From positions 4,425 to 68,424 of the IMG/VR virus record IMGVR_UViG_2887198475_000005: a stretch of 64,000 bases of DNA; one strand, given 5' to 3'. The DNA is from a virus (taxonomy: Duplodnaviria > Caudoviricetes). Numbering within the stretch: the first letter of the stretch is position 1; each line of letters begins with the position of its first letter. Both the position numbers and the translations under genes were made by a program. Below, in pieces: positions 4,146 through 33,478 of the stretch. Under the pieces are notes generated by a model that saw only the letters and a list, made by a program, of their open reading frames with translations, was not told the DNA's origin and did no database searches.

Positions 4146-7100
4146 ATGTCTTCGGAAAACGAGAAAGTCAATGATGCCGCTGTAGGCATCGAAGACAGCG
4201 CACGCGCGGAAAGCAGGCCGACCGGCCAGACCACCGAAATCCTATACCAGCAGGGCGAGAGCATCTTCGGGCTCCACGGCAGGGCGCTGGTCGCCCGTGG
4301 CTGGTCGGTGTTCCCGCAGGAAGTCGACGGCCGCCGGCCGGGCCGGGTGTTCCAGCAGACCATCAAGTGGGCCGAGGACCACCACCTCCGAGATTGCCTT
4401 CCGGCTCCCGACGTCCTTGACCTCTGGTGCGGTCACTGCGCCACGCTGAACGTCGCCTGCGTGTTCGGGCCCGCGAGCGGCAACGCGTTCGCGGTCGACA
4501 TCGACTGCATGGACGAGGTCCGTTCCAACGCCATCATGGAGCTTGCCGAGGAGCACCTCGGGCCGACCACGTTCATGCGCGAGGGCCGTGCACCCAAGCT
4601 GGCGCTGCTCTACCGCACGACTCCCGGCGACATGCCGCCCTCGTTCTCGCGCAACTTCGAGGCTAGGGACGGCTTCGGGCGGCCAGAGAAATCCGGCGAC
4701 GGCCTCGAAATCCTGTCGTCGGGCAAGCTGATCACCATCTACGGCCGCCACCACAAGACGGGCAGGTATTTCCAGTGGATGTCGCCGACGGCGCAGCCGC
4801 TGACGGCGGGCCCGGAGGCGCTGCCGCTGGTGACCTCCGAGCAGGTCGCCACTTTCCTGGAGGCGGTCGCCGATAAGTTCCCGTTCTGGCATGGCACCTC
4901 AGCCCCCGCCGCCTGGGTGCAGGGTGACGCCTCGGTGCACGGCGTGCGGGGCGCCCGCATGCGTGGCGGCAGCTATCCGCGCAACGAGGACGGCCTGGTG
5001 TTCGAAGGGCGCGACGGGTTCATGCGCGACCTGGTGCTGCGCATCGTCGCGGACGCCTCCAACTGGCCCGGCGAGCCTAAGGAGCATGGCGCCGACGCGG
5101 GGCTCTTCGCGGCGTTCTGCGAGGCAGTGGAATCGTCCTTCCGCGAGGGCGCGGTCATCGACGGCCGCTGGGCCCGCGAGCGCGACCTCAAGGCGACCAT
5201 TGCCGAGAAGGTCTCGCGGACCATGCGTAACGTCGCGAGCGGGCATCTGCGGACCTACTTCGCCGGCCCGGCGCTCCCGGCCGCCGTTCCTGGGCAGGCG
5301 CTGCCCGCGCAGATGAGCGCCGCCGAGGCGTCGGCCGCCCTGACCGCGCTGGTCCGCGAGCACGTCGCGGCCGCCGCCGCCTGGGTCGCCGCCAAGCGCG
5401 TCGGCGAGCCGCCCGCCCTCGCCATCAAGGGCATGGCCTCCCTCGGCAAGACCGTCGCCATCCTGCAAGCCCTGGCGACCCCCGAGTGCGAGGGGCTGCG
5501 GGTGCTCTACGCGGCCCCGACCCTCAAGCTGGCCGAAGACGTGGCCAAGGCCGCCCGCCAGCTCGGGATCGACGTCCGTGTGCTACGGGGCCGCTCACAG
5601 CCGCGCCCGGACGACCCGGACTCCAAGATGTGCGCCAAGGCGGACATCGCCGAGATGCTCGCGCAGCTCTCCGCCCCGGTGAAGACGACCCTGTGCCGCC
5701 AGCCCTGCAAGAAGGGCGACGAGCCCAAGGAGTGCCTCTTCGCGGCGACCTGCCCCTACCTGGCGCAGATCGAGGCGCTCAAGGACCGCAAGTCCGGGCC
5801 GACCCTCTGGGTCTGCGCCCACCAGTACCTGTCGACCCCGCTGGAGGGGCTCACCGAGAAAGCCTTCGACCTCCTGGTCGTCGACGAGTCCTTCTGGCGA
5901 GCCTTGACCCGGACGGTGTCCGTCGACCCGGCGGCCTTCCTGACCGTGCGCGAGCCGGGTGAGAAGCTGCATGCCCGCAAGGGGGAGGACCGCGGCGACT
6001 TCGAGCTGCGCCGCAACGGCATGACCGTCCGGCACGCCGGGCTTCTCGACAAGGTCCGCGCCATCCTGCTGGACAACCCCCGCAAGACCATCTCGCTCGC
6101 CGACTTCCGCGCCGCCGGCCTTGACGCCGAGGAGTGCGAGTGGGCGGCGGGCTTCGAGTACACTAGGCTCGGCTCGCCGGACATCACGCCAGACATGGAC
6201 GAGGCTGAGCAGCTGGCGATTGTCTCAAGGGCACGCCGCGAGGAGGCGTTCGGCTTCGCCCGCTTCTGGCGCGTGCTCGGCGCCGAGCTTGCCCTCGAGC
6301 GAGACCAGCTGGTCGGCATCGAGCGGGTCCACGGCCGCTGGAACGAAGAGACGGAGCAGCTCGAGAACGGGATCCTACTTCACTACTCGGCGGACCCGCG
6401 CCTGACCGAGCTGCCTGTGATCCTGATCGACGCCGACCTCGACCCGGAGATCGCCTGCCGCTTCTACCCGCGTGTGCAGGGCAACATCCACGTCATCGCG
6501 GCCGCGTGGTCCCCGCGCTGCCGGGTGCGGCAGGTCGGCGAGCGCCCGGTCAGCAAGTCCATGCTGCTGGGCCGCCCCGGCTCCAAGTCCGAGACCGACC
6601 GCGCCGAGGCCCGCCGCGAGGACCTCTGGAACATGATGCTCGACATGGCCGACCGGCACGGCCACCCGTCCGACATGTCCGGCGCGACGGCCAAGGCCCG
6701 CGCCCGGCGCCCGCTGCTGATCACCTTCCTCGGCGTGCGGCAGGCTTGGGCCAAGCGGGGTCGGCTCGGCACCCCGGAGCTCCCGCTGGCGACCCCGGAC
6801 TCCCTGCCGTTCGACGTGGCCCACTTCAACGCGAATCGCGGCCTGGACGGCTGGAAGGAGACCACGGGCATCGTGGTGGCGGGCCGCCTGCAGCCGTCCG
6901 TCGGCGCCATCGAGTCCCTTGCCCGCGGCATCTTCTTCCGCGACCCCCGGCCGCTGGCGCTGCTGCCGTTCGCGCGGGACGGCCGCGGCGACCGGACGGA
7001 CGAGAAGGACTGGCCGACCACGATCCGATACATCCAGCTCCGCGACGGTCGGCGGGTGCCCGTCTCCGTTCCTGCGCACACCGACCCGCGGTGCGACGCC

Positions 7101-8396
7101 GTCCTGCTGCAGGTCCGCGACGCCGAGATCACGCAGTCCCTGGCGCGCTGCCGCCCGATCCACCGCGCCGAGGACGCGCCCTGCGAAATCGTGCTCGCCA
7201 CGAGCGTCCCTGTCGACGGACTCATCGTCGACGAGCTGGTGACCTGGAACGACCTCGTGCCGAGCAAGCTCCGCATGATGGAGGTCGAGGGCCGGGTCAT
7301 TCCCGAGAACGCGACCGACATGGCGGCGGCCTATCCCGACCTTTGGAAGAGTCCGGATGCCGTGCGGGTAGCCCGTGCCACCGCGAGGGAGAAATCGTTG
7401 ACCGCCTCGACGGCAGAGGAAAGTCTGTTGACGATAAACGTAAGCGAGTCTCCTATTATATATAGAACCGACTGGCTTACGTTTATTGCCAACAAATTTG
7501 GCGAGGTTAACAGAATTGCCCGTTGGGTGGAGGTGACCTACGACCGGGTTACCCCCGGAGGCACCCGCCATCGCCGTTCCCGCGCCGCTGTCCGGGTTCG
7601 CTCTGGCGATACGTGCGCTGACGTGCTTGGCCGGGCAAGCAAGGCGTTGCCGTTCGCCTCCCGGCTGTCCCTCGCCGACGGCGCTGCCGATGTCATTGCT
7701 CTCGCCGCCACGCCCGCCCCGGCGGCTTCCGAGCCCCCGGCCGCCGCGCCGCTCCCAGCCGCCCAGGAAGACCCACAGGCGGCCGGGAGCGAGATCCGGC
7801 TGCCGGAGGGCGTCCCGGCGCCTGCAGCGCCGCAGGCGCCCGCGAGCGCGCCGCGCAAGGGCATCCGGCGGGCCGGGCGTCCTGGCGCTGGCTCGGCGAC
7901 CGCAGGAGCCCCGGCGGCTTCGACTGTGCAGGACCGCCACCGGGTGTCCGTCCTCGACCTCATCCGGTCTGCCGCCTCGCCCGAGGACGCTGACGCGTCC
8001 ACCTCAGCCGCCCCGGTGATCGTCTCCGCCGCCCCCATGCCGATGGCCGCCGGGCATCTCGAAGCCGTCGTGGCGCCCACCGCTGCCCCGCCGGCGGTCG
8101 TGCTGGCAGGGTTCCCGGCCGTCGCCGGGGACCAGGAGGACGGTGACGACGAGGAGGGGCTGGACTGGTCGCCAGACGCCGAGCCGTTGCTCGCGGACCG
8201 CCTCGAGTGGTGCAGGGCGACCCTGCAGGCGCTGGCCGTCGAAGCGTGGGGCGACCTCAGCTACGCGCACGCTTGGCTCTACAGCGCCCACCCGGATTTC
8301 GGATGGCAGGCGCCCCTGGACGCGTGCGTGTCCGTCCGGGCGCTCGAGCGATGCCGTGCAGCCCTCGAACGGGAAACCGCCGCCACGGTCCACTGA
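4146..8396 (+). CDS. Multidomain replication protein: N-terminal Prim-Pol, helicase-like P-loop region, C-terminal MbcA/ParS/Xre-like domain
   Basis: GWSVFP, AVDID and YGRHHKTGRYFQW (Prim-Pol); GMASLGKT Walker A; Cys cluster; LVVDES Walker B; NRGLD and QSLARCR helicase-type motifs; C-terminal AWGD..AHAWL..AHPDFGWQAPLD. ATG at 4146 preferred over TTG at 4101. Confidence 0.8.
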   Translation: MSSENEKVNDAAVGIEDSARAESRPTGQTTEILYQQGESIFGLHGRALVARGWSVFPQEVDGRRPGRVFQQTIKWAEDHHLRDCLPAPDVLDLWCGHCATLNVACVFGPASGNAFAVDIDCMDEVRSNAIMELAEEHLGPTTFMREGRAPKLALLYRTTPGDMPPSFSRNFEARDGFGRPEKSGDGLEILSSGKLITIYGRHHKTGRYFQWMSPTAQPLTAGPEALPLVTSEQVATFLEAVADKFPFWHGTSAPAAWVQGDASVHGVRGARMRGGSYPRNEDGLVFEGRDGFMRDLVLRIVADASNWPGEPKEHGADAGLFAAFCEAVESSFREGAVIDGRWARERDLKATIAEKVSRTMRNVASGHLRTYFAGPALPAAVPGQALPAQMSAAEASAALTALVREHVAAAAAWVAAKRVGEPPALAIKGMASLGKTVAILQALATPECEGLRVLYAAPTLKLAEDVAKAARQLGIDVRVLRGRSQPRPDDPDSKMCAKADIAEMLAQLSAPVKTTLCRQPCKKGDEPKECLFAATCPYLAQIEALKDRKSGPTLWVCAHQYLSTPLEGLTEKAFDLLVVDESFWRALTRTVSVDPAAFLTVREPGEKLHARKGEDRGDFELRRNGMTVRHAGLLDKVRAILLDNPRKTISLADFRAAGLDAEECEWAAGFEYTRLGSPDITPDMDEAEQLAIVSRARREEAFGFARFWRVLGAELALERDQLVGIERVHGRWNEETEQLENGILLHYSADPRLTELPVILIDADLDPEIACRFYPRVQGNIHVIAAAWSPRCRVRQVGERPVSKSMLLGRPGSKSETDRAEARREDLWNMMLDMADRHGHPSDMSGATAKARARRPLLITFLGVRQAWAKRGRLGTPELPLATPDSLPFDVAHFNANRGLDGWKETTGIVVAGRLQPSVGAIESLARGIFFRDPRPLALLPFARDGRGDRTDEKDWPTTIRYIQLRDGRRVPVSVPAHTDPRCDAVLLQVRDAEITQSLARCRPIHRAEDAPCEIVLATSVPVDGLIVDELVTWNDLVPSKLRMMEVEGRVIPENATDMAAAYPDLWKSPDAVRVARATAREKSLTASTAEESLLTINVSESPIIYRTDWLTFIANKFGEVNRIARWVEVTYDRVTPGGTRHRRSRAAVRVRSGDTCADVLGRASKALPFASRLSLADGAADVIALAATPAPAASEPPAAAPLPAAQEDPQAAGSEIRLPEGVPAPAAPQAPASAPRKGIRRAGRPGAGSATAGAPAASTVQDRHRVSVLDLIRSAASPEDADASTSAAPVIVSAAPMPMAAGHLEAVVAPTAAPPAVVLAGFPAVAGDQEDGDDEEGLDWSPDAEPLLADRLEWCRATLQALAVEAWGDLSYAHAWLYSAHPDFGWQAPLDACVSVRALERCRAALERETAATVH
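7426..7494. other. Candidate replication origin: 25-bp imperfect inverted repeat with AT-rich loop
   Basis: Arms 7426-7450 and 7470-7494 match at 22/25; loop TCCTATTATATATAGAACC; sharp AT-rich island inside the GC-rich rep gene. Confidence 0.65.
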
Positions 8397-8535: not shown

Positions 8536-9243
8536 ATGGCCGCGAAGCGGAAGCGGGAGCCCAAGCAGCAGTCGACGTCCACGGGCAGGCGCGTCCCCTG
8601 GCACGTTCGCCACGATGACCGCCAACCCCTGAATGGCGGCGCGCCGTCGGATGTCGCGCCCATCGAGCGCTGGGACCACGGCGAGCGCGTGGTCGCCGAA
8701 CCAGCGCCCGGTTCCCGCATCCGTGTCGAACGCGCTGGATCCGGGATCGACGCCCTCCTCGCCAACGGGACGATCGACAACCGGCTCGCCAACGCGGCCT
8801 CGCTCTGGCAGCGCGACTACGAAGGCGCGCTGTGTGTCGGGCAGGGGGCCGCTCCGGCTTCGGACCGCGTGAGAGTTGACACGTCGGTGACGGCGACGGA
8901 CGGCGGCATCGTGCGGCGGCTGGACGCCGCGACGCGTTACCGCGAAGCGTGTGCGGCCATCGGACTGCTCGGTGATGCCCTGCTGCAGCTCACGGTCGCT
9001 GCCGGGCTGTCGCTGTCGCGCCTGGAGGCTGTCCTGACGCCTTCCACCGGCGCCGCCGGCGCACTGCCGCCCGAGCTGCAGGCGGTCGCCGCGCGCGTCC
9101 GGCGGCTGAACCGCGTGGCGCTCGTCGGCGCACTCGTGGCAACCCTTGATCGCCTCGCCGACCACTACGACGCCGTTGACCGGGAACATGCCGCGGCCGC
9201 GCGCACCCGTCGGGCGGCTGCGGGGCGGGGAGACGCGGCATGA
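8536..9243 (+). CDS. DUF6456-like putative transcriptional activator
   Basis: LLANGTID...QRDYE...YREACAAIG...GLSL...LDRLADHY pattern; lies right after the replication gene; GGGGAGG RBS. Confidence 0.55.
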   Translation: MAAKRKREPKQQSTSTGRRVPWHVRHDDRQPLNGGAPSDVAPIERWDHGERVVAEPAPGSRIRVERAGSGIDALLANGTIDNRLANAASLWQRDYEGALCVGQGAAPASDRVRVDTSVTATDGGIVRRLDAATRYREACAAIGLLGDALLQLTVAAGLSLSRLEAVLTPSTGAAGALPPELQAVAARVRRLNRVALVGALVATLDRLADHYDAVDREHAAAARTRRAAAGRGDAA

Positions 9244-9746
9244 ACACGCCCGGCGCCGTCCTCGCGCTCGACCTCGGCACCTCGACGGGCTGGGCCCTGC
9301 GCACGCCGGACGGCCTGATCACGTCGGGCACCCAGTCGCTGCGCGGCGGCCGCTTCGAGGGCGGCGGCATGCGGTATCTCCGGTTCCGCGCCTGGCTGTC
9401 GGAAGTCGAGGCGTTGTCGGGCGGCTTGCGGCAGGTCGCCTTCGAAGAAGTCCGCCGCCACATGTCAACAGATGCGGCCCACGTCTACGGAGGGCTTCTC
9501 GCCACGCTGACGGCCTGGTGCGAGGAGCGGGGCATCCCGTACGCCGGGGTTCCCGTGCAGACCATCAAGATTCACGCGGCCGGGTCGGGCAACGCGTCCA
9601 AGGATGCCGTCATCGCCGCTGTCCGGGCGGCTGGGCACGAGCCCGGCGACGACAACGAGGCTGACGCCTTGGCGCTCCTGCGGCTGACCGTCGGCGCGCC
9701 GGCGGCCGCGAGGGCGACGGCCGCGAGGGGGAGGAAGGCGGCATGA
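9240..9746 (+). CDS. RuvC-like Holliday junction resolvase
   Basis: LALDLGTSTGWA, FEEV, GSGNASK, DDNEADA; ATGA coupling with the upstream gene. Confidence 0.8.
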   Translation: MNTPGAVLALDLGTSTGWALRTPDGLITSGTQSLRGGRFEGGGMRYLRFRAWLSEVEALSGGLRQVAFEEVRRHMSTDAAHVYGGLLATLTAWCEERGIPYAGVPVQTIKIHAAGSGNASKDAVIAAVRAAGHEPGDDNEADALALLRLTVGAPAAARATAARGRKAA

Positions 9747-9967
9747 GAGCGCGCAAGAAGGCGGCTGCGCTGCCGGAGGACTACGAGCCGGACGAGAGGG
9801 CGCAAGGCTCCTTGGCGCGGGCCCTGGGCATGCCGCTGGCCGCCAATCCGTTTCTAACCGAAACGCGCGCCTGGATGGCCTGGTGCCAGGGCTGGCTCGA
9901 CAGCGACGTGCTGATGTCCGGCAGCCCGGGCACGACGTCCGCGAGGAACGGAGGAGTGCCGTGGTGA
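9743..9967 (+). CDS. Small Rmf/CrpP-like protein
   Basis: G..ARALG....NPF......W..GW pattern. Confidence 0.5.
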   Translation: MRARKKAAALPEDYEPDERAQGSLARALGMPLAANPFLTETRAWMAWCQGWLDSDVLMSGSPGTTSARNGGVPW

Positions 9968-10485
9968 AGCAGGCCCAGTTCGGCTGGAACCCGGACTACG
10001 CGGTGCCGCCTGGTGCGGTGATTGCCGAGCACCTGGAGGTGCGGGGCTGGAGTGAGGCCGATTTGGCGCGCCGTATCGGATGCCAGCCGCAGATGGTCAG
10101 CGAGATGATTTCCGGCGAGAGCCCTGTTGATCCGACGACGGCGTGCGCCCTTGAGCGCGTGCTCGGGGTGAAGGCCGAAATCTGGACGAACATGGGGGCG
10201 AACTGGCGGACCTTCCGGGCGCGGACACTCCCGAGGACGCCTACGTGCGCGAGGGCGCCGGCGATGAATGAGACGCCGCTTCCCGACGCGACCTGCCCCG
10301 CATGCGGCGCCCTTGGCGGCGTGGTCCGCTTCGAGCGCCGCGAGGGCGAGGTCGTACGGGGCGTTGTTCTCGAGGTCACCAAGACCCTGCGTCGGTGCGC
10401 CGCATGCGGGGAGGAGTTCGAGAATAGCCGCGACCCGGATTGGCGCGCGGGTGCTTACGCCCGGCTCCGGGCGGACAAGGACTGA
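9964..10485 (+). CDS. HigA-family HTH fused to an MqsA/YgiT-type zinc ribbon
   Basis: PPGAVIAEHL...SEADLARRIG...ALERVLG...WTN, then CPACG...CAACGEEF; GGAGGAG RBS before the GTG. Confidence 0.7.
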   Translation: MKQAQFGWNPDYAVPPGAVIAEHLEVRGWSEADLARRIGCQPQMVSEMISGESPVDPTTACALERVLGVKAEIWTNMGANWRTFRARTLPRTPTCARAPAMNETPLPDATCPACGALGGVVRFERREGEVVRGVVLEVTKTLRRCAACGEEFENSRDPDWRAGAYARLRADKD

Positions 10486-10512: not shown

Positions 10513-11250
10513 ATGCCAGCGAACAGCATTCCCTACGAACTGGCGGTGATCCCGGAGCGCTCGCCCGGGCCGCTGCTACGCGCCCTTGGTGCCCGCCGCT
10601 TCGACGGCAGGACCATCCGGTTCACCTGGGGCGAATGGACGCCCGGCTGGGGGCTGGTCCTCAGGCTCAGGAAATGGTCGGCAGTCTATGGCGGCGGTTG
10701 GTCGCTCTTCGTCCAGCCGGGATACGGGAAGCTCCGTGTCTCCCTCCCGCTCCCTCGACGCGAAGTGAAGGGCGAGGGTGCCTGGGGCTTCCAGGCCGAC
10801 CTGGGGGGAGGCAATGTGCACGTCCAGTGGGGCTACGGGCACCCGGGGAAGGTCTACGACCTCCCGTGGCGCGCCTGGCGCTGCGAGCGGCACGACGTAT
10901 TGGCCGTCGGCGGCTGGGTGCCATGCCCGGAAATCTTCGCGGGCCGGATGGATAACCCGCTGGCCGCGACCGAGACGCACCCCTATCGCTACGTGACGGA
11001 CAGCGGCGAGGTGCAGGAGGTGACCGCTACGATCGCCGTCGAGGAGCGCGAGTGGCGGCTGTCGTGGCTCCGGTGGCTGCCGTGGGTCCGGCGCGTAAGC
11101 CGGACGATCGAGGTGTCCTTCAGCGATGGGGTCGGCGAGCAGCGCGGCTCCTGGAAGGGCGGCACGGTCGGCTGCAGCTACGAGATGCAGCGGGGCGAGA
11201 CGCCAGCCGAATGCCTGCGCCGGATGCAGCGCGAGCGCCGCTTTCGGTAG
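10513..11250 (+). CDS. Hypothetical phage protein (Trp/Gly-rich)
   Basis: GGGAGG RBS; phage-like codon usage. Confidence 0.7.
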   Translation: MPANSIPYELAVIPERSPGPLLRALGARRFDGRTIRFTWGEWTPGWGLVLRLRKWSAVYGGGWSLFVQPGYGKLRVSLPLPRREVKGEGAWGFQADLGGGNVHVQWGYGHPGKVYDLPWRAWRCERHDVLAVGGWVPCPEIFAGRMDNPLAATETHPYRYVTDSGEVQEVTATIAVEEREWRLSWLRWLPWVRRVSRTIEVSFSDGVGEQRGSWKGGTVGCSYEMQRGETPAECLRRMQRERRFR

Positions 11251-13174: not shown

Positions 13175-13543
13175 ATGCTGGAGGCAGACATGGCTGACGA
13201 TGAGGACCGTTGGGTGCGCGTGATGCCCGACCACTGCAGCTCGGGGCTGTGGTGGAAAGACGGCTGCATGATGGATCCGGAAGACCTGCCGATCAGCGGC
13301 GCCCTGCGGGAACGGCTGGCCACGTGGGCGGATGGATACAGCGCGTGCATCGACCACTTGCCGGACGGGTCGCCCGTGCCATTCGACGAGACCGCCTACG
13401 CCGCCGAGGGGCTGGCCATCGCGCAGGCCATCAAGGCCGAGCTGCCCGGGTGGACCGTCATTTACTTCGACATCAGCAAGCTCGACGACAGCCAGGAGGA
13501 CCAGCCCCGCGGCGAGTTCGAGTACGAGGTGACGCCGCCATGA
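13175..13543 (+). CDS. Hypothetical acidic protein
   Basis: Globular-looking sequence (WVRVMPDH...LPISGALRERLATW); coupled to the next ORF. Confidence 0.7.
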   Translation: MLEADMADDEDRWVRVMPDHCSSGLWWKDGCMMDPEDLPISGALRERLATWADGYSACIDHLPDGSPVPFDETAYAAEGLAIAQAIKAELPGWTVIYFDISKLDDSQEDQPRGEFEYEVTPP

Positions 13544-14035: not shown

Positions 14036-14641
14036 ATGTATCAGTTCAACTTTGTGGACCCGCATGCCGCATTCCTCGGCGCGCTGACGCGCGCTCTCGA
14101 GGGCCGCGATGGCGTCTCCGCGACGGCTGGCCTCCTGCAGCCAACCGGCTGGGATGCCCTCATTGCTGCAGGGAATTCGTTCGGCATGATGGACGGCGGT
14201 GTCGACCTTGCCATCGCCAGGATGCTTCCCGGCGTCGAGGGGCGCGTGCGGGCGGCGATTGCATCCGAACACGGCGGCTTCCTGCCTGTCGGGGCGGCAG
14301 TGGCCGTGCCTGCGGATGGCGATCTGGTGACGGGCCGCTGGCTGCTCTACGCGCCGACCATGGAGTCCCCACGGGACATCCGCGGCTCGGTCAACGCCTA
14401 CCTTGCGATGCACGCGGCTATCGGTGCCGCGAGACGGATCCCGCTCCCGGCCGGGACGACCATCGCGTGCACGGGCCTGGGCACGGGGGTCGGACGGCTG
14501 CCGCCCGAGGTGGCCGCGCGGCAGATGGCGCTGGCCATTCGGCATGCGGAGGGCGCGCCTCCGGCCAGCTGGCGCGATGCGCTGGGGCGTCTCGTCGATG
14601 TCGAGTGCGCCCGCTGGGGGTTGACGAGGGCGGCTGCATGA
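14036..14641 (+). CDS. Macrodomain (ADP-ribose processing) protein
   Basis: DALIAAGNSFGMMDGGVDLAI, APTM and GLGTGVG macro signatures; GGAGG RBS. Confidence 0.9.
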   Translation: MYQFNFVDPHAAFLGALTRALEGRDGVSATAGLLQPTGWDALIAAGNSFGMMDGGVDLAIARMLPGVEGRVRAAIASEHGGFLPVGAAVAVPADGDLVTGRWLLYAPTMESPRDIRGSVNAYLAMHAAIGAARRIPLPAGTTIACTGLGTGVGRLPPEVAARQMALAIRHAEGAPPASWRDALGRLVDVECARWGLTRAAA

Positions 14642-15724: not shown

Positions 15725-17170
15725 GTGACCATCGAGGACATCGTCGAAATGCTCCGTACCGACGCAGCCACCGCCGCCAGCAGCCCGCTCGGCCAACTCG
15801 TCCTTTCCGCCGCTCGCAGGCTCGAGCACGGCGGCGACATGCCGGTGGGCGCCAGGCGGAGACTCTCGTCCGAGCAGGCGTTCGCGGCCATGACCGTCTG
15901 CACCAGGATGGTGCGGACCCACGGTCTGCAGCCCTCGACCGTCTGCAAGGAGGCGGGGCTGGTGGAGGAAGCGAGCGGCACTTTTCGCTACATGCTCACG
16001 GCCAGGGAAATGACGCCAATCGGCGAACTGGTTCAGGGTGCCGCCGCCAGACGGGACATCTCGAAGAAGCTCCAGCGCTACGTCCAGATCGTCCGGACGG
16101 TCGCCCGGCTGGCGGGGAAGGAGGAGCTTCCGCTTCTGGAGGACCTCGGCGTGGCGGTGGCAGACTACCTCGCCCCGTTCAACGAAGAGACGTCCGCCCC
16201 CCATGACGAACTCGCGGCTGACCTCATCGCGCTGGGTACTTACTTCGGCAGGGCGCGGGAGGGGACAGGCGGCGAGCTGATCGACCTCAAGGAGTTCTTC
16301 GAGGCGAGCGGGCGAATGGGGGTGATCTACGACCCGGCGACCAACGGCATGGTCGCCTTGCCTGATGACCCTGTCGACCTCGGCCACGAACCCTCCGTGC
16401 GGCTTTTCATGCGCCGCGTCGCCTCGGGTCAGGGCGAGTGCTACCGCCACGAGCGGAACCCCTCCGGCTTCCCGGTCTATATCAGCCGGGAGATCGGGCG
16501 CGTTCGGTTTCAGGTCTACGAGGTGGTCTCGCTCGCCCTGGTGAGGAACAGGGACAAGATCCGCGCTGTCCTGGTCGCCGAGCCGTGGACAATGGTTCAG
16601 GACAGGCCGGGCGAGCCGCCCGCGCGCTTCTTCGACCGCTCGGCCCGGCGCTGGGAGCAGGGAGTGCCGTTCGGCGGAGGCATCCGCGTCGGAGAGGGCG
16701 AGGGCCAGTTCTCCTTGATGGCCGGCACGAATGTCGCGTTCGCCTGTCCCCTGTATGAGCAGTACATCAGGGAACTCGAAGGGGATGGCGAGAGCGAGTT
16801 TGGGAGCGGCTTGGTCGCCGAGGTGGTCTGCACGCCGCGTCGTATCGAGATCGACCCTGAGGTTCTCCGCGTCTACCTCGAGGACGTCGCCGCTTACGAA
16901 CCGCGTAAGGCATTGGAGTTCATGGAGGCGAGCGCGCCCTGGGCGCAGGGCTACGTCGTCCAGGCGACGCTGACGCATGCGGACGGCCGGGAGGCGAACA
17001 GCCTTCTCGAACGTCTGGAAGATGCCCTCTATGGCGACGGGAACGCCATCCTTGCGGCGCTGCTCGACCAGGTGACCAAGCGCGTCCGCGCGCTCGATGA
17101 CCTCATGGCTAAGACCCTGACGACGCGGCAGGCCCAGAAGACGCATTTCCGTCGCCTCATGCGCAGCTGA
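15725..17170 (+). CDS. Hypothetical 481-aa protein
   Basis: Long ORF with AGGAGGT RBS and normal amino-acid composition; no family recognised. Confidence 0.85.
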   Translation: MTIEDIVEMLRTDAATAASSPLGQLVLSAARRLEHGGDMPVGARRRLSSEQAFAAMTVCTRMVRTHGLQPSTVCKEAGLVEEASGTFRYMLTAREMTPIGELVQGAAARRDISKKLQRYVQIVRTVARLAGKEELPLLEDLGVAVADYLAPFNEETSAPHDELAADLIALGTYFGRAREGTGGELIDLKEFFEASGRMGVIYDPATNGMVALPDDPVDLGHEPSVRLFMRRVASGQGECYRHERNPSGFPVYISREIGRVRFQVYEVVSLALVRNRDKIRAVLVAEPWTMVQDRPGEPPARFFDRSARRWEQGVPFGGGIRVGEGEGQFSLMAGTNVAFACPLYEQYIRELEGDGESEFGSGLVAEVVCTPRRIEIDPEVLRVYLEDVAAYEPRKALEFMEASAPWAQGYVVQATLTHADGREANSLLERLEDALYGDGNAILAALLDQVTKRVRALDDLMAKTLTTRQAQKTHFRRLMRS

Positions 17171-18119: not shown

Positions 18120-18214
18120 AATATTCTACTATGATGAGAAGCTATCTTCATAGCGTTCCGCGTTCCATCGGGGCGGGCCACGATGCGGCCGATCCCAATG
18201 AGGAGACGCATCCG

Positions 18215-18622
18215 ATGCCGATGATCCAGGTCCGCTACGTCACACCCGCGCCTCGACCCGAACTGCGCGGCGCGATCGCCGCCCTCGCCGCCCGGCTCGG
18301 GCGGGAATGCCTCAGCAAGGACCCGGGCGTGACGGCCGTCCTCGTCGAGCCAGCGGACCCGCAAGGCTGGTTCGTCGCCGGCCGCCGCCCGGCGGTGGAG
18401 GACGGCAAGGCCGCGTTCTGGCTCGACATCAAGATCACCGCCGGCACGAACACCAAGGGTGAGACGGCGGCCTTCGTGCGCGCGGCCTTCGATGGTATGG
18501 CGGCACTGCTCGGGCCACTGCACGAGGAAAGCTACGTCCTCGTGCACGCCGTGGACGGTGACGCCTACGGCTACGGCGGTCGCACGCAGAACGCCCGGTG
18601 GGCTGCGGCCAACCCGGGCTAG
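18215..18622 (+). CDS. 4-oxalocrotonate tautomerase family protein
   Basis: Pro-1 (MPMIQV), ITAGTNTKGE, SYVLVHAV..DAYGYGGRTQ; divergent from LysR. Confidence 0.9.
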   Translation: MPMIQVRYVTPAPRPELRGAIAALAARLGRECLSKDPGVTAVLVEPADPQGWFVAGRRPAVEDGKAAFWLDIKITAGTNTKGETAAFVRAAFDGMAALLGPLHEESYVLVHAVDGDAYGYGGRTQNARWAAANPG

Positions 18623-24754: not shown

Positions 24755-24829
24755 TGGTCGGCGGGGCCGGATTCGAACCGGCGCATGGACAGTTATGAGC
24801 TGTCGGCTCTGCCGCTGAGCTACCCGCCG
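24755..24829 (-). tRNA. tRNA with CAT anticodon (elongator Met or Ile2), CCA encoded
   Basis: Full cloverleaf: acceptor CGGCGGG/CCCGCCG, D arm GCTC/GAGC, anticodon arm GACAG-CTCATAA-CTGTC, T arm GCCGG-TTCGAAT-CCGGC, ACCA end. Confidence 0.95.
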
Positions 24830-24842: not shown

Positions 24843-25403
24843 TCAATTCGTTCCGGCTGCCCGTTCCTCCGCTCGCCGCCGGACGTCGGCCCACGTCCGC
24901 CAGAGCGACATGGCATCCTCGAGCGCGCGGTGATGTACGCGCTGTCGGCGTTCTTCCTCGACCTGCGCGGCGGCCACGAGTTGCCTGGCGGTCGCTACAA
25001 GGTCGTCGCCAGCGAGCACGGCGTGCAACGGGCGGCACGCGGCGGCGTACGCTTCGTAGACATCTCGCAAAGGGATGCGGGGAGCCGACGACGATGCGGC
25101 GAGCAGCTCGTCGAGCCACATCTGGTCGTGGCCTGGCACGTCGGAATAGACGCGGGCAGCCGGATCTCCGAGGACGGTGATGAGACGGTTCGCTACCCAG
25201 ACCGCCTCGTGGCCGTCGCGCTGCAGATGGGCGCGCGTGATACCGTGGATGCTCTGGGACGCGGGCGACCAATCACACCAGTCCGGCTCAGGGCGAATCA
25301 GGTAGCTCTCGCCCCTGCCGTCCTCGCCGACCCAGGCGACCTCGATCGGGTAGCTGTCGGTGGAGAGGGAGGACGCCTCGAAGTCGATGAAGAACACGCT
25401 CAT
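24843..25403 (-). CDS. DEDDh (DnaQ-like) 3'-5' exonuclease
   Basis: FIDFEAS (Exo I), IHGIT, HDQMWL (Exo II), HRALEDA (Exo III). Confidence 0.85.
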   Translation of the reverse strand: MSVFFIDFEASSLSTDSYPIEVAWVGEDGRGESYLIRPEPDWCDWSPASQSIHGITRAHLQRDGHEAVWVANRLITVLGDPAARVYSDVPGHDQMWLDELLAASSSAPRIPLRDVYEAYAAACRPLHAVLAGDDLVATARQLVAAAQVEEERRQRVHHRALEDAMSLWRTWADVRRRAEERAAGTN

Positions 25404-27376
25404 TGCAGAACTTCCTTCGGAACGCAGGCATTTCCCGCCGCCCCGGCGACGACCGCGCGCAGCTCGTCGCCCGTCAATACCTCACGGACCGCCAGTGCCT
25501 CGGCGACGGCCTCGACCTCCGCGCGCCGCCGCCGAACGACATCAATGGCGGCGGCATAGGCGTCGGCGAGCCGCGCCTCGACGCGCTCCGCGAGCGCGCG
25601 GTTTAGCCCGAGCAGCGAGCCGACATTCTCTGCGGTCGGGTCCGCAATCCACGTCAGCCGACCTCCGAGCCCCCAGGCCGCCTCTGCCGACGCGGCGATC
25701 ACTGTCGCTTGCGAGAGGTCCGAGCTAGCCGAGCCGCCTGCGCCGCCACCCGGTTCGCCGAGCAGGACTTCCTCGGCGGCGCGCCCGGCCATCAGGTCGA
25801 CGAGGACCGCGCGGACGTCGGCGGCGGTTGTGGCCATCCTGGGGGCGTCGCTTTCAATGGCCCCGGCCATCGTCCCAGTTGCTCGGATGCCCACGTGCCA
25901 CACACGGCGGCCGTGCTGCATCATGACGACGGCGTGCCCCGCCTCGTGGACAGCCGCCCGCCGCAGGATTTCCGGTGAACGCTTGCCGCCCTCGTTGTCG
26001 CGGATTTCCGCGATCAGGTCGGCCAGCACGAGGCGGCGCCCGGCGTGCCGGGCACGGCGGCGAGCGCCGCGGGACCACCGCTCGCAGTCAGCGCCGGAGC
26101 CGCCCAAGGCAAGGCGGGCGGCCTGGGAAAGATCGAGGCCGTCCGCATCGGCGCCGAGGTGCTCTTGCAGGATGCGCTCAAGCGCCGGGGCGTCCGGCAA
26201 GCCCAGGCGCAGCACGCGGTCGAGGCGGCCAGCGCGACGCAGGGCGGGGTCAACGCGCTCGGGGAAGTTGCTGGCCGCGAGCACGATGACGCCCTCGCGA
26301 GATGCAAGGCCGTCCATCTCCGCGAGGAGCGCGTTCGTCAGCGGGGCGAACCAGCTTTCGTTGTGGCCCGCCTGACCGCGGCCGATGAGCGAGTCGATTT
26401 CGTCGATGAAGAGAATGCAGGGCGCCTGCGAGCGCGCGAGCGCGAAGTCCTGGCGCATGCGGCCAATAATCTCGGTGTAGCTGCCCTTGCCGTCCTCGCC
26501 GCTTTTCCATTTGCTGTAGCTGGCGGGAATCAATGGCACGCCCGCACTTGCAGCGAGCGCGGCCGCGAACGTGGTCTTGCCGCAGCCGGGTGGCCCGCAC
26601 AGCAGCGCGCCGCGGTCCATGTCCTTCCACGCCAGCCGTCCGGCCTGGCAGTCGGCGATGTCGCGGCAGGTAGAATTGCCCCACGCAACCGCTTCATCGC
26701 AGCCATGCAGGCGGGCCAAGGTCCACTCGGAACGTGCGTGTTTGGGGCGCTCAACGAGTTCCCCGAGGCGGCGCACGTAGTCCGCGGACGCCATGCTTGG
26801 CCGCCATGCCAGCCGCATCACGACGGGTGTCAGGTGGCGCGCCACGTCGTCGGGCACGCCTGCAGCGTCTCCAGAGGTCATCTTGGCGACGACAGAGGCG
26901 ACGACGGCGCTCGTGATTTCGGAGCAGTCGAGCGTTGCCTGGGCGGCGCGCAGGAGCACGGAGGGGAAATCCGTGTCCAGGCGTGCCGACACGAGCACGA
27001 GCATGCCGTCCTTGTTGCCGAGACGCATGGCGTTATTGATGGCGTCAGTGTGTTCGGACGGGGATACCCGTGCCCGGTCACTTCCAAAGCGGTCAGGCCG
27101 CTTGAGGACTTTGCATACCCCGACGCTGGGGATGGCGCACGCCTTGGTCTCGACCACATCAGCGAGTGCTGACGTCCATTCGTCCGACGGTGAGCGTACG
27201 ACTACGATGGACGCGTTCGCCCAGTCGGGCGCGCGCTCGATTGCAGCGGCCGTTAGGGCGTCGACGAGCAGACGCGCCGGGTCGGGCGGCAGCCGGAGGT
27301 CCGCGGCAATCTGAGCTTCGATGGTGGCGATATCAACGTCTTCGACGTCGTCTTCGTCGGAAGGCATAGCAGGCAC
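25400..27376 (-). CDS. Soluble FtsH-like AAA+ ATPase / M41 metalloprotease
   Basis: GPPGCGKT, FIDEID, AASN, DPALRRAGRLD, HEAGH, MAGRAAEE, SDL; no transmembrane segments visible. Confidence 0.9.
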   Translation of the reverse strand: MPAMPSDEDDVEDVDIATIEAQIAADLRLPPDPARLLVDALTAAAIERAPDWANASIVVVRSPSDEWTSALADVVETKACAIPSVGVCKVLKRPDRFGSDRARVSPSEHTDAINNAMRLGNKDGMLVLVSARLDTDFPSVLLRAAQATLDCSEITSAVVASVVAKMTSGDAAGVPDDVARHLTPVVMRLAWRPSMASADYVRRLGELVERPKHARSEWTLARLHGCDEAVAWGNSTCRDIADCQAGRLAWKDMDRGALLCGPPGCGKTTFAAALAASAGVPLIPASYSKWKSGEDGKGSYTEIIGRMRQDFALARSQAPCILFIDEIDSLIGRGQAGHNESWFAPLTNALLAEMDGLASREGVIVLAASNFPERVDPALRRAGRLDRVLRLGLPDAPALERILQEHLGADADGLDLSQAARLALGGSGADCERWSRGARRRARHAGRRLVLADLIAEIRDNEGGKRSPEILRRAAVHEAGHAVVMMQHGRRVWHVGIRATGTMAGAIESDAPRMATTAADVRAVLVDLMAGRAAEEVLLGEPGGGAGGSASSDLSQATVIAASAEAAWGLGGRLTWIADPTAENVGSLLGLNRALAERVEARLADAYAAAIDVVRRRRAEVEAVAEALAVREVLTGDELRAVVAGAAGNACVPKEVLQ

Positions 27377-29631: not shown

Positions 29632-29777
29632 CACAACACCAACCAGCTTGCGCCGCCCACGCCACCGCGGTCCTCCCCCGCGCAGACACGGCGGGTAATA
29701 GCCGCCCTGAAGCGGCGGGCCGGCGCATCCCCCTACCCGCCGCCGGGCGGGCATACAGCCGCCCGGGAGCGTGACCG

Positions 29778-30320
29778 ATGGCGAAGAACATCAGCCGCCG
29801 CCGCGCGCCAAACGACCACAGGCGCGCCCTCTTCGTCGCCGAGTATCTCAAGGATCTCAACGCGGTTCAGGCGGCGATCCGCGCCGGATACGAGCCCAGC
29901 ACGGCCGAGCGGTGCGCCTGGCAAATCATGCGCTACCCGGACGTGAAAGCGGCCATCGAAGATGCGATGGCGGACCGCCTCACGCGCATGAAGGCAACCG
30001 CCGACGCCGCGGTGGCCGACCTATTCCGGCGCGCCCGCTACGACCCGCTGGACTACGCCGACATCACCTGCCCGGCCGACCTCGCCAAGCTCACCCCTGA
30101 GCAGCGGGTTCCCATCGAGGGGTGGAGCTACGACCGGGCGGGCAACTTCATCCTCAAGCTGTCCTCGAAGACGTCGAACGGCGAGACGCTGCTCCGTCAC
30201 CTCGGCCAGCTCAAGGACAAGGTCGACCTCGAACACAGCGGCCCTGGCGGCGGCGCCATCCCGACTTCGCTGGAGATCCGGTTCGTGAGGCCGCCTGATG
30301 GGAACGGCAGCAGCGATTGA
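29778..30320 (+). CDS. terS: Terminase small subunit
   Basis: LFVAEYLKDLNAVQAAIRAGY signature; EHSGPGGG C-terminus. Confidence 0.92.
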   Translation: MAKNISRRRAPNDHRRALFVAEYLKDLNAVQAAIRAGYEPSTAERCAWQIMRYPDVKAAIEDAMADRLTRMKATADAAVADLFRRARYDPLDYADITCPADLAKLTPEQRVPIEGWSYDRAGNFILKLSSKTSNGETLLRHLGQLKDKVDLEHSGPGGGAIPTSLEIRFVRPPDGNGSSD

Positions 30321-31551
30321 GTTCCCGGCGAAGCTGGATTTCCTGTTCGAGCCAGCCCCATTCAAGGTTCTGCACGGAGGGCGCGGCAGCTCAAAATCGT
30401 GGAGCGTGGCGCGCGCTCTGCTGATACTCGGCGCCCAGCGCCCTCTTCGAATCCTGTGCGCCCGCGAGTACCAGACGTCGATCAAGGAGTCCGTCCACAA
30501 GCTCCTGTCCGACCAAATCGAGATGCTCGGCCTGCGGCATCTCTACACGGTGCAGGAGAAGACGATTTTCGGCGCTAACGGCACCGAGTTCATCTTCGCC
30601 GGGATGCACCTGAACAGCAACAAGATACGGTCGACCGAAGGTGTCAACATAACCTGGGTCGAAGAGGCCCAGGTCGTATCGAAGGAATCCTGGGAGGCAC
30701 TCCTGCCGACCGTGATGCGGCGGGACGGCTCGGAGATATGGATCACCTTCAACCCGGACCTTGAGACCGACGAAACCTACAAGCAGTTCGTCCTGTCCCC
30801 GCCGCCCGGCGCCATCGTCCAGCAGGTCAACTACTACGACAACCCGTGGTTCCCCAAAAGGCTGCTCCCGCTGGTCGAGCACCTCAAAGCCACGGACCTC
30901 GACGCATATGCCAACGTCTACCTTGGGGAGTGCCGCAAGAACGTCGTCGGCGCGCTCTGGACGAAGGAGATGCTGGCCTACCTCCGGGAGCCAGCCGTCG
31001 AGGACATCGCCGCACGCGAGGCCATGCGCGCACGCATGGCGCGCATCGTGGTCGCCGTGGACCCCTCGGGCTGCTCCGGGCCAGACGACAAGCGCTCCGA
31101 CGAGATCGGGATCGTCGTGGTCGGCCTCGGCCGCGACGGGATCGCAGTCGTCCTCGAGGACCTGTCGGGGCGCTTCTCGCCGGACGGCTGGGCCAAGAGG
31201 GCGCTCGACGCCTTCGACGCCTGGCGCGCCGACCGCATTGTCGCGGAGAAGAACTTCGGCGGGGCGATGGTCGAAAGCACGATCCAGACGGCAAGGCGCA
31301 ACGCACCAGTCAAGCTGGTGACCGCATCCCACGGCAAGCTGCAGCGCGCCGAGCCGATAGCCGCCCTCTACGAGCAGAAGAAGGTGCACCATGCCGGGGC
31401 CTTTCCGGATCTGGAGCAGCAGCTCTGCCACTTCAGCACCGCCGGCTACCAGGGCAAGCGGTCCCCCGACCACGCGGACGCCTGCATTTGGGGGCTTACC
31501 GAACTGATGCTCGGCGATTCGACCTATGACACCAGCATGAACTGGGTTTGA
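30298..31551 (+). CDS. terL: Terminase large subunit (PBSX-like)
   Basis: HGGRGSSKS, WVEEA, TFNP, VAVDP, EKNFGG, PDHADA. Confidence 0.95.
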   Translation: MGTAAAIEFPAKLDFLFEPAPFKVLHGGRGSSKSWSVARALLILGAQRPLRILCAREYQTSIKESVHKLLSDQIEMLGLRHLYTVQEKTIFGANGTEFIFAGMHLNSNKIRSTEGVNITWVEEAQVVSKESWEALLPTVMRRDGSEIWITFNPDLETDETYKQFVLSPPPGAIVQQVNYYDNPWFPKRLLPLVEHLKATDLDAYANVYLGECRKNVVGALWTKEMLAYLREPAVEDIAAREAMRARMARIVVAVDPSGCSGPDDKRSDEIGIVVVGLGRDGIAVVLEDLSGRFSPDGWAKRALDAFDAWRADRIVAEKNFGGAMVESTIQTARRNAPVKLVTASHGKLQRAEPIAALYEQKKVHHAGAFPDLEQQLCHFSTAGYQGKRSPDHADACIWGLTELMLGDSTYDTSMNWV

Positions 31552-31558
31552 GGGCGCG

Positions 31559-33478
31559 ATGGCACACGCACTCTATGACGCCATCGACGCGACCGCCGCA
31601 GGCCGCCTGGCACACATCAGCCAAGGCAGTCTTGATCCAATCTCGGCGGACGCGGCTCTGTCCGACAGCCTGCGGAACCTGGTGTCCGGACTCGGCACGG
31701 AACGCGACAAGGCCACCCACGGGCGTTTCGCGAACGAGTGGCTCGACAAGTTCCAGCTGGACGCGATGTATCAGTCCGACTGGCTGGCCGGGAAAATCAT
31801 CGACGCCCCTGCCGACGACATGACGCGCGAATGGCGGACATGGAACGGTCCAGCGAGGGCCGTGGCTGCCGTCGATGACGCCGAGGAGGACTTGCGCGTC
31901 AGGGAGCGGGTCAACCACGTGCTCAAGCTGGCCCGCCTCTACGGCGGCGCCGGAATCTACATCGGCGTCGGCGAGGATGCCGATCCGGCCAAGGAGCTCG
32001 ATGTCGCCTCCATCCAGCGCGGAGACATCAGGTATCTGCATGTCCTGAGCCGCTACGAACTCTGGGCGGGCAACATCGACCGCGATCCGGTGTCCCCGTA
32101 CTTCGGCGAGCCTGAGTACTACATGATGTCGTCACCGACCGCAGGGGGCGTGCGGATACATCCCTCGAGGGTGGTTCGCTTCCTCGGTCAGGCCCGCCTT
32201 GAGCTGAGCAGGCAGGTCGACGGCTGGGGGCTTCCGGTCCTCCAGCGCCTCTACGACGCCATTCGCGACGCCGTGGCATCCAACCAGGGTCTCGCGGCCA
32301 TGGTGCAGGAGGCCAAGGTCGACGTCATCAAGGTCAAGGGACTGACGCAGAACGCGGTCGACGAGGGTTGGAGGCGCCGGACGCTGGCGCGGTTCTCCCT
32401 TGCGAACCAGGCCAAGAGCCTGGTCGGAGCGATGCTCCTCGATGCCGAGGAAGCATGGGAACAGAAGAAGCTGTCCCTGGCCGACATGCCCAAGGTCATC
32501 TCCACCTTCCTGGAGATCGCTTCTGGCGCGGCCGACATGCCGGTATCCCGCCTGCTCGGAACCGCTCCTGGCGGCCTGAACAGCACGGGCGAAGCCGACA
32601 TCCGCCACTACTACGATTCCATATCCGCGAGGCAGCGAACCGAGCTGTCGCCTGGCCTGCGCAGGCTGGACGAGGCCATCAAGCGGCACGCGGGGGTCGG
32701 CAAGCGGTCCGTCTCCTATACGTGGAATTCGCTGTGGCAGATGACCGACGCCGAGCGCGCGGACATCGGGCTCAAGAACGCGCAGCGCACGCAGGTCGTC
32801 CGGCAGACCGGCCTTGTCCCCGTTCGGGCACTGGCACAGGCCGAGCGCTCGCGCCTCGTGCAATCAGGGGAATTCCCCGCCCTCGAGGACGCGCTGCAGC
32901 AGTCCGAGGCTCGTCGCGATCCCGACTTCACGATGCCCTCTGCAAGCGCCCAGGCCCCCTCGGAACCGAGGCCGTCTCCAAGGCCGATCGAGGCCGGAGA
33001 CGCCGCAGGCCGCCCGAGGACGCTCTATGTCAGCCGCCCCGTGCTTAACGCCGCCGACATCATCGCATGGGCCCGGTCCCATGGGTTTGCCTCGACGCTT
33101 GAGGCCGACGACCTGCATGTAACGGTCGCATTCTCCCGCAAGCCACTGGATTGGGCGGCGGTCGGGAGCGACTGGGAGACCGTCTCCGTGGCACCGGGCG
33201 GCAAGCGCCAGGTGAAAGCGCTCGGAGACAAGGGGGCGGTCGTTCTTCGGTTCGACAGCGGCGCGCTGACGGAGCGCTGGCGGCAGATCATCGCCGCCGG
33301 GGCCTCGTGGGACCACGACGGCTTCCAGCCGCACGTGACCATCACCTACGCAGGCGGCGACGTCGATCCGGCCTCCGTGCAGCCATACGACGGCCCACTC
33401 GTCCTTGGGGCCGAGCGGTTCGCGGAGGTCAACGAGGACTGGCTGGCCAGAGTCCGCGAAGAGCCGGCTGGCTCGTAG
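31559..33478 (+). CDS. Portal protein (DUF1073-like) fused to an Acb1-like 2H phosphoesterase
   Basis: ARLYGGA, RIHPSR, SRLLGTAPGGLNSTGEADIRHYYD; C-terminal DDLHVTVAFS and FQPHVTITY. Confidence 0.88.
   Translation: MAHALYDAIDATAAGRLAHISQGSLDPISADAALSDSLRNLVSGLGTERDKATHGRFANEWLDKFQLDAMYQSDWLAGKIIDAPADDMTREWRTWNGPARAVAAVDDAEEDLRVRERVNHVLKLARLYGGAGIYIGVGEDADPAKELDVASIQRGDIRYLHVLSRYELWAGNIDRDPVSPYFGEPEYYMMSSPTAGGVRIHPSRVVRFLGQARLELSRQVDGWGLPVLQRLYDAIRDAVASNQGLAAMVQEAKVDVIKVKGLTQNAVDEGWRRRTLARFSLANQAKSLVGAMLLDAEEAWEQKKLSLADMPKVISTFLEIASGAADMPVSRLLGTAPGGLNSTGEADIRHYYDSISARQRTELSPGLRRLDEAIKRHAGVGKRSVSYTWNSLWQMTDAERADIGLKNAQRTQVVRQTGLVPVRALAQAERSRLVQSGEFPALEDALQQSEARRDPDFTMPSASAQAPSEPRPSPRPIEAGDAAGRPRTLYVSRPVLNAADIIAWARSHGFASTLEADDLHVTVAFSRKPLDWAAVGSDWETVSVAPGGKRQVKALGDKGAVVLRFDSGALTERWRQIIAAGASWDHDGFQPHVTITYAGGDVDPASVQPYDGPLVLGAERFAEVNEDWLARVREEPAGS

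Follow-up and report, generated by a model that had tools for sequence, protein, structure and literature searches.

In a 64,000-nucleotide stretch of DNA from a virus of the class Caudoviricetes (hereafter the window; bases 4425-68424 of one 68,424-base record, IMGVR_UViG_2887198475_000005, which IMG/VR classes as a provirus and CheckV rates as 83% complete), the portal protein ends in a domain of the Acb1 family, and a homolog of Acb3 is encoded among the early genes. Both families act against the cyclic oligonucleotide-based antiphage signaling system (CBASS). We consider it probable, though far from assured, that the early/accessory and head blocks of this temperate phage attack CBASS at two steps, with Acb1 placed alongside the putative protease that would trigger the defense. 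Acb1, Acb3, and phage orphan antitoxins are already known; what the searched literature does not discuss is a large Acb1 clade built into portals and head-maturation proteases.

The portal-Acb1 protein

The portal-Acb1 gene (positions 31559-33478, plus strand; 639 aa) begins with a portal domain of the Phage_portal_3/HI1409 family (PF06381; residues 66-412, positions 31754..32794, E 4.3e-101), a part of the protein that is also matched by TIGR01555 (250 bits) and phrog_146. A linker of ~74 residues (32795..33016, plus strand), whose end abounds in Pro, Ser, and Ala, leads to an Acb1 2H-phosphoesterase domain (PF23474; residues 487-629, positions 33017..33445, plus strand, E 1.6e-39). Against a curated cutoff of 27 bits, the Acb1 model scores 135.3 bits on the whole protein and 139 bits on the C-terminal piece. 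The two H-x-T motifs of the domain, HVT in both cases, lie at 33116-33124 and 33332-33340, and H36, T38, H108, and T110 are invariant in all eight aligned Acb1-domain sequences, a set that excludes locus L005. Among solved structures, the C-terminal piece matches the Pam3 portal at its C terminus (8hds; E 2.8e-30) as well as the FBB1 Acb1 (7t26; E 3.5e-9), to whose HTT and HIT motifs its own motifs align.

No ribosome-binding-like sequence precedes the sole in-frame ATG of the linker, at 32933. Given this lack of an internal-start signal, the Acb1 domain is most likely translated as part of the portal, forming its last ~150 residues and not a separate protein. The Acb1 family is described, in the passages of the literature available to us, as cleaving cyclic oligonucleotide signals, and the same activity is predicted for the window domain from its family assignment.

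A different reading is that these modules are mostly not counter-defense: the 2H domain would act on another substrate (e.g., RNA 2',3'-cyclic phosphate ends) or be structural, and the antitoxin-like modules described below would have regulatory, metabolic, or interaction roles. Weak matches to LigT and 2',5'-RNA-ligase models do overlap the Acb1 domain, and PHROG names the Acb1 family "RNA ligase"; however, these models reach only 18 to 21 bits, against the 135 to 139 bits of the Acb1 model, and the same genome carries Acb3 as an independent anti-CBASS gene. We regard this reading as quite unlikely.

A second anti-CBASS gene

The Acb3 homolog, a member of the family of CBASS CD-NTase inhibitors, is encoded at 10513-11250 (plus strand) as a 245-aa product. 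It matches PF25187 over profile positions 7-245 of 245, with 232.6 bits against a cutoff of 27 (E 7.8e-69). In passages of citing papers, Acb3 is described as an inhibitor of the CD-NTases of CBASS types I and III and of cGAS, and inhibition of CD-NTase signal synthesis is predicted for the window protein. Relatives of Acb3 occur in 53 phage records, at ~30% identity and mostly from Vibrio siphophages.

A reading of this stretch from the sequence alone, without database searches, had listed four modules (an MbcA/ParS-like domain on the replicase, an orphan HigA/MqsA-like protein, a macrodomain, and an Acb1-like domain on the portal) together with a tRNA, and had proposed a layered arsenal against NAD/ADP-ribose toxins, RNase toxins, tRNA cleavage, and cyclic-nucleotide signaling. 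All five elements were found, both fusions are real, and recognizable anti-CBASS families number two, Acb1 and Acb3. Acb3 is a fifth module, absent from that list.

Acb1 in the head modules of other phages

Relatives of the Acb1 domain occur in 220 records of the phage collection. Among the 60 matches listed, six fall under genes annotated as portal, and many of those from T4-like phages are small stand-alone genes. In phiPSA1, the gene after that for the portal (600 aa) bears the annotation "head maturation protease." A search with the whole protein found six loci in GTDB genomes (from Pseudomonas, Stenotrophomonas, Pararhizobium, Allorhizobium, and, twice, Rhizobium), every one with the fusion, at ~40% identity; a single open frame of 620 to 646 residues was verified in five of these and in phiPSA1, and L005 is represented by one tblastn segment only. 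The phrog_146 portal profile itself covers the Acb1 part. At related prophage loci, the portal-Acb1 gene occurs together with the protease/scaffold gene; none of Acb3, the macrodomain, the protein with a helix-turn-helix (HTH) and a zinc ribbon, and the replicase recurs there within 10 kb.

When IMG/VR was scanned with the alignment of the domain, 477 relatives were returned, and the best 80 were classified by local tblastn and one Pfam scan. A PF06381-type portal and Acb1 share one open reading frame (ORF) in 62 of the 80 loci, a figure biased by the ranking, which went by likeness to an alignment composed mostly of portal-fused sequences. Other single-ORF architectures join a PF04860-type portal, Acb1, and Mu_F (three loci: L013, L017, and L038), Acb1 and DUF2213 (four loci: L018, L030, L035, and L080), or Acb1 and a Peptidase_S78 prohead protease (two loci: L010 and L016); nine loci have no architecture class (L011, L019, L029, L031, L040, L049, L073, L087, and L089). 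The gene order in L018 is portal, MuF-like gene, Acb1-DUF2213 fusion, scaffold, and next head gene. The N-terminal domain of DUF2213 lies in or downstream of the Acb1 ORF in 64 of the 80 loci, and within 400 nt of it in 29 of the 76 loci that have at least 700 nt of room. A quick tree of Acb1 domains joins both S78 fusions in a starred pair and places two of the three portal-MuF fusions in a second one; its backbone is unresolved, and it does not tell how many fusions took place or in what sequence. Judged by this gene order, the Acb1 subfamily lives in the head-morphogenesis module between the portal and the head-maturation protease, and the portal fusion is neither special to the window phage nor an answer to sensing of the portal.

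One further candidate was rejected as a fusion. Roseobacter phage DSS3P8 gp129 (L001, 2989-3441), annotated as "prohead protease, HK97 family," is a mis-annotated stand-alone Acb1 homolog of 150 aa that keeps both H-x-T motifs. Separately, two of the loci without a class contain very long frames (L019, 340-6459, 2040 aa; L040, 1-6441, >2147 aa) whose only Pfam match is a central Acb1 domain; they may be long-open-frame artifacts or large multidomain virion proteins.

Our literature search, outside which lay supplements and many subscription journals, found no discussion of an Acb1 clade built into portals or head-maturation proteases. The main text of Hobbs 2022 contains neither the word "portal" nor the word "fused," and the passages of the Pam3 portal literature that we could consult neither name nor discuss the Acb1 domain.

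Acb1 and the reported CBASS trigger

Only 12 bases past the portal stop begins the gene for a DUF2213 protein with a coiled-coil C-terminal half (33490..34677, plus strand; PF09979, E 1.6e-51), which matches phrog_530, "head maturation protease," with an E value of 2.8e-98. Two preprints, as far as the portions available to us go, connect enzymes of this kind to CBASS. Phage prohead proteases are reported to activate CD-NTases through cleavage of the activation loop late in infection, and the prohead protease gp21 alone to suffice for CBASS activation (Hobbs and Kranzusch, bioRxiv 10.64898/2026.03.04.709575); escape mutations from type I CBASS are reported to map to scaffolding prohead proteases, and a scaffold domain alone to elicit CBASS-dependent toxicity (10.1101/2023.05.21.541620). 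The word "portal" does not occur in the main text of either preprint, nor does "fused" in that of the 2026 preprint.

Since CBASS is, by these reports, turned on by prohead proteases late in infection, the placement of Acb1 would ensure its coproduction with the trigger. In the mechanism that we propose, the Acb3 homolog of the early gene string would inhibit CD-NTases, while the Acb1 domain at the end of the portal, expressed with the late genes, would cleave cyclic oligonucleotide signals. A nuclease beside or on the head-maturation protease would thus coincide with the CBASS trigger in both time and place of synthesis, and the Acb1 domain may also be drawn into the procapsid.

Several observations, in addition to the ranking bias noted above, weigh against this proposal. 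Many Acb1 genes of T4-like phages stand alone, elsewhere in the genome. The DUF2213 product is a putative protease by PHROG and GenBank annotation only; its Pam3 homolog is annotated as a scaffold, and a PDB sequence search with the window protein returned only coiled-coil noise. Both reports on the trigger are preprints and concern E. coli phages with other protease families. A CD-NTase (SMODS) is present in just one of five genomes carrying portal-Acb1 prophages, a set of five examined without controls. Finally, portal protein has a modest output, which would be compatible with a packaged enzyme no less than with a cytoplasmic one.

This last point bears on the main alternative, in which Acb1 is delivered by the virion: the domain would be loaded into the head by way of the portal, MuF, or protease, cut loose by the maturation protease, and ejected along with the DNA, reaching the next cell before phage genes are expressed. 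All identified fusion partners are located within the procapsid or on its inner face, a pattern that this alternative fits as well as coproduction with the trigger does, and the window protein has a flexible linker of ~74 residues ahead of the Acb1 domain and a protease-family gene directly 3' of its own gene. Injection of head-internal proteins has precedent in the T4 internal proteins (IPs) and Alt, and a MuF-toxin hypothesis exists. On the other hand, passage through the channel would require the folded 17-kDa domain to unfold, and twelve copies per virion make a small dose. Early delivery is also not obviously needed against a defense that the available reports describe as firing late. We judge virion delivery to be unlikely.

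Coproduction with the trigger, the reading that we prefer, also has a broader form, which we put forward only tentatively. In this form, the Acb1 subfamily would have been welded repeatedly onto head assembly (two unrelated portal families, MuF, and two unrelated protease families), because CBASS would sense the head-maturation protease itself; the nuclease would be coupled physically and temporally to this trigger, and the Acb1-protease fusions would be a literal trigger-plus-antidote; more boldly, the capsid would carry the nuclease and deliver it alongside the DNA; and, separately, the replicase would bear a decoy antitoxin against a host RES-type NAD-degrading toxin.

The sequence-only reading had itself proposed a trigger-plus-antidote design, in which the portal and the replicase are the proteins sensed by the host and each bears the matching antidote. 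Both fusions exist, and portals and terminases are indeed cited as triggers of Avs systems in a passage that describes nuclease effectors. However, portals are cited there as triggers of Avs and not of CBASS, and Avs systems, as described in that source, are not said to depend on cyclic nucleotides, which are what Acb1 degrades. As for the replicase, its antitoxin-like tail was found in none of 28 relatives and is thus no general solution to replicase sensing; our searches turned up no literature on the triggering of RES-Xre systems by replicases, a link for which no specific search was made. In its original form, this design is very improbable. A protease-linked variant of the design, in which the trigger is the protease and not the portal, gains support for Acb1 from the gene orders described above.

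The placement of Acb1 offers an independent genomic line of evidence for the prohead-protease trigger model, and the natural Acb1-protease fusions are ready constructs bearing on that model. The window would also bring two functions to bear on one defense, inhibition of the synthase by Acb3 (early genes) and destruction of the signal by Acb1 (late genes).

The replicase and its C-terminal tail

The replicase gene (4146..8396, plus strand) encodes a PrimPol-helicase of 1416 aa from the ATG at 4146; the frame is open from a TTG at 4101 (1431 aa), and the database copy (P0007) has 1416 aa. A Prim-Pol domain (PF09250; E 1.8e-9) spans residues 62-239, and a DEAD/P-loop model matches the protein weakly. 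Toward its end, a low-complexity linker of 195 residues, 53 of them Ala and 25 Pro (7551..8135, plus strand), precedes a C-terminal MbcA/ParS/Xre-type (PF09722-like) domain (8235..8372, plus strand).

Several lines of evidence bear on the identity of this tail. The only credible nonself match in a phmmer search of a 1.84-billion-protein library was P0011 (E 3.2e-5), whose 161 aa reach 38 bits on PF09722 and share 34% identity with the tail over 67 aa by BLASTP; the other four of the five matches were one self match and three repeat proteins with four to eight matched stretches, which were judged spurious from their sequences. A structural model built from two sequences reached a pLDDT of 84.3. 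When this model was compared with the PDB by Foldseek, the first 13 matches listed were all RES-family antitoxins (VPA0769, P. putida Xre, NatR, ParS, and MbcA), with TM scores by query (TMq) of 0.41 to 0.66 over the 13 and every E value at least 0.06; the best six had TMq values of 0.57 to 0.66 and root mean square deviations of 1.5 to 2.3 Å. A single-sequence PDB search with the tail gave no match.

Other results count against an antitoxin-like tail. The last 85 aa score 20.9 to 22.4 bits against PF09722 (Xre_MbcA_ParS_C; E 1.2e-4 to 3.6e-4), below the gathering threshold of 24.5, and 14.2 bits against NCBIfam NF049845, for which the threshold is 90. Compared with two RES-operon antitoxins (n = 2), the tail keeps the central A..W..P pattern and lacks the H-G-hydrophobic end. 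Weighing these results, we consider the tail very probably homologous to the antitoxin domain; that it neutralizes a host RES toxin is a separate and more doubtful proposition. RES genes are present in three of the five genomes that carry portal-Acb1 prophages, again a set of five examined without controls.

The relatives examined range from 865 to 1469 aa, and no other protein of the searches made joined a PF09722-like tail to a PrimPol-helicase. Many relatives (P0012-P0024, ~1420 to 1470 aa) carry another conserved C-terminal motif, A..W..K.G..DDRLMP, at the position of the tail. A different motif at the same position suggests a swappable C-terminal interaction module, a role that the mostly non-defense reading would assign to the tail itself. 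If the tail works as proposed, surrogate-antitoxin counter-defense would extend to RES-type toxins.

Other antitoxin-like modules and the tRNA

The HTH-zinc ribbon protein (9964..10485, plus strand) combines an N-terminal HigA-type HTH (HTH_3, E 2e-8) with a C-terminal CxxCG..CxxCG zinc ribbon, whose motifs are CPACG and CAACG, the pair that gives the MqsA model its name. Its HTH half resembles the solved HigA 4mcx (E 1.5e-5), and the protein matches phrog_1381, "plasmid antitoxin with HTH domain" (E 3.1e-10). Weighing against an antitoxin identity, it misses the curated cutoffs of both HigA TIGR02607 (39.2 bits, cutoff 47.7) and MqsA TIGR03830 (22.2 bits, cutoff 61.8). Matches to PHROGs for phage transcriptional regulators favor the mostly non-defense reading, in which the protein would be an early regulator. 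A search of 5.8 billion proteins returned, among 418 candidates, only the protein's own cluster. With moderate confidence in the domain call, we note that the protein may be either an antitoxin mimic or a plain regulator.

Immediately upstream lies a 74-aa ORF (9743..9967, plus strand), which overlaps both of its neighbors by 4 bases and is not a recognizable toxin. It is translationally coupled on both sides and shows subthreshold likeness to ribosome modulation factor (RMF) and to CrpP-related proteins.

The macrodomain is a stand-alone protein of the Macro/Macro_2 type (14036-14641, plus strand; 201 aa) that scores 28.2 bits on PF01661, against a cutoff of 22. A longer frame of 362 aa, from 13553, was rejected: the database copy has 201 aa, and residues 1 to 161 of the long frame seem to be read out of frame. 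The structural model (pLDDT 93.6) has a macro fold, and its best PDB match is 1njr, yeast Ymx7, an Appr-1''-pase (ADP-ribose-1''-monophosphatase; E 6e-10, TMq 0.71); DarG macrodomains are second-rank structural matches (E 4.7e-5). The best match suits the mostly non-defense reading, which takes the protein for an Appr-1''-p phosphatase. Not one of the 201 residues is a lysine, and a figure legend gives K80 as an active-site residue of T. aquaticus DarG2. The lack of lysine, together with Ymx7 as the closest fold, makes a DarG-like mechanism unlikely, and with it both DNA de-ADP-ribosylation of the DarG2/AdfM type and the proposal that the macrodomain is an ADP-ribose antidote like DarG. Macrodomain relatives are found in 44 phage records, often annotated as Appr-1-p processing protein.

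Just upstream of the macrodomain gene, a 122-aa protein (13175..13543, plus strand) is encoded that has no Pfam or PHROG match. Its Atlas model resembles a cpYpsA cluster (PF12694; query TM 0.69), which hints at a nucleotide-binding protein and no more.

The tRNA (24755..24829, minus strand; ARAGORN; Rfam 60.5 bits) has a CAU anticodon and an encoded CCA end. Its paired C1-G72 and an anticodon stem without three G-C pairs mark it as elongator type and not initiator. It weakly matches three phage records annotated tRNA-Met; its sequence is compatible with Met or Ile2 and does not separate them. The tRNA had been proposed as an answer to tRNA cleavage, but it is of the elongator type and was linked to no nuclease; in the mostly non-defense reading, it would simply serve translation.

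No toxin partner accompanies these modules. Five family searches of the 68-kb record (~83% complete) found no match at E ≤ 1 to RES, HigB, MqsR, DarT, or ParE/RelE. Orphan antitoxin-like enzymes are an established form of phage counter-defense, according to PMC11825919 and to passages on AdfM, and this precedent speaks against a mostly non-defense reading. The replicase tail, the HTH-zinc ribbon protein, and the macrodomain plausibly act as surrogate antitoxins or as ADP-ribose-processing enzymes. The layered arsenal proposed from sequence alone stands in its CBASS part, which is solid, and is only plausible for the other modules, which are antitoxin-like or ADP-ribose domains without a toxin partner.

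Genome layout and other features

The GC content of the window is ~0.62 to 0.73. At 69% GC, plain ORF lists are noisy, and genes were called with a filter on third-position GC (GC3). About 60 proteins and fragments were profile scanned, and the E values of the main domains are far beyond chance for that number. Among cultivated phages, even the nearest relatives are distant: 70 records, which include cyanophage Pam3 and Rhizobium phages, share 60 to 80% DNA identity, and the best covers 16% of the head-gene query. The macrodomain, Acb1, Acb3, and the replicase tail all went unmatched in PADLOC.

The plus-strand early string runs from the PrimPol-helicase (4146-8396) through a phrog_16492 protein, a RuvC-like resolvase (9240..9746, plus strand; phrog_159, E 8.5e-27), the 74-aa ORF, the HTH-zinc ribbon gene, and Acb3, and continues with several small ORFs without assignment, the macrodomain gene (14036-14641), and a gene for a 481-aa protein (15725-17170) for which an Atlas search gave no usable match. 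The next block consists of a LysR gene followed, on the minus strand, by genes for a MarR-like HTH protein, the tRNA, an exonuclease, and an FtsH-like AAA+/M41 protein. From 29778 onward, the plus strand carries the head module: the small and large terminase subunits (29778..31551, plus strand; Terminase_2, E 5.3e-20; Terminase_3 and Terminase_6C), then portal-Acb1, DUF2213, a decoration protein, and the capsid.

Several further genes may be of interest. In the stretch 17268-18622, the LysR-family regulator (minus strand) is divergent from a gene for a 163-aa protein and, in its mid-phage position, looks like an accessory insertion. The FtsH-like protein (25400-27376, minus strand; 658 aa) has AAA (E 7.5e-29) and Peptidase_M41 (E 4.8e-17) domains behind an N terminus of 250 residues without a domain match, and resembles IetA/IteA and TRIP13 ATPases (NCBIfam, PADLOC). 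At the right end of the record (58957-63667, minus strand), a 999-aa SNF2-family helicase lies beside a 489-aa protein with a weak HATPase_c_3 match; these two may be a prophage-borne or flanking defense-like pair. Just outside the window, a 508-aa N6/N4 DNA methyltransferase (L009, 1260-2786, plus strand; E 2.5e-25), with no restriction partner seen nearby, is possibly a further anti-restriction element.

Comparison with known systems

The antitoxin-like modules resemble known antitoxins in part. Like the antitoxins of the Xre-RES, ParST, MbcTA, NatRT, and VPA0769/0770 systems, the replicase tail has their sequence pattern and a predicted three- to four-helix fold; unlike them, it lacks the Xre HTH, has no RES gene in the record, and is tethered by an Ala/Pro linker to a PrimPol-helicase of 1300 residues. 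The HTH of the HTH-zinc ribbon protein is like that of HigA, but no HigB gene is present; in MqsA, the zinc domain is N-terminal and the HTH follows, whereas the window protein has the reverse order and no MqsR gene. The concept of an antitoxin half without its toxin is shared with the orphan antitoxin counter-defenses described for AdfM and for the NADAR-type anti-DarT1 enzymes of T4-like phages, in the passages available. AdfM itself comes from chimalliviruses, and in PhiPA3 the window macrodomain matches feature 271 and not the protein identified in the source passage as AdfM, gp108.

The anti-CBASS genes correspond more closely to known proteins. The window Acb3 is a full-length Pfam match to the known CBASS/cGAS inhibitor, which the passages that we consulted attribute to a structure-guided screen. 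The Acb1 proteins of T4 (gene 57B) and of Erwinia phage FBB1 (7t26/7t27) belong to the same Pfam family as the window domain, and both of their H-x-T/S motifs align with it; they are, however, stand-alone proteins of ~150 aa encoded away from the head genes, whereas the window domain is the C terminus of a 639-aa portal. This is a difference of architecture and not a failure of domain membership. The closest parallels are the portals of Pam3 (gp3; 8hds), phiPSA1, the Rhizobium phages RHEph/RHph, Synechococcus phage Ssp-JY39, and Aminobacter phage Erebus, which combine the same portal family with a C-terminal Acb1 domain at ~40% protein identity to the window portal, and the head genes of Pam3 and its kin show distant DNA similarity to those of the window.

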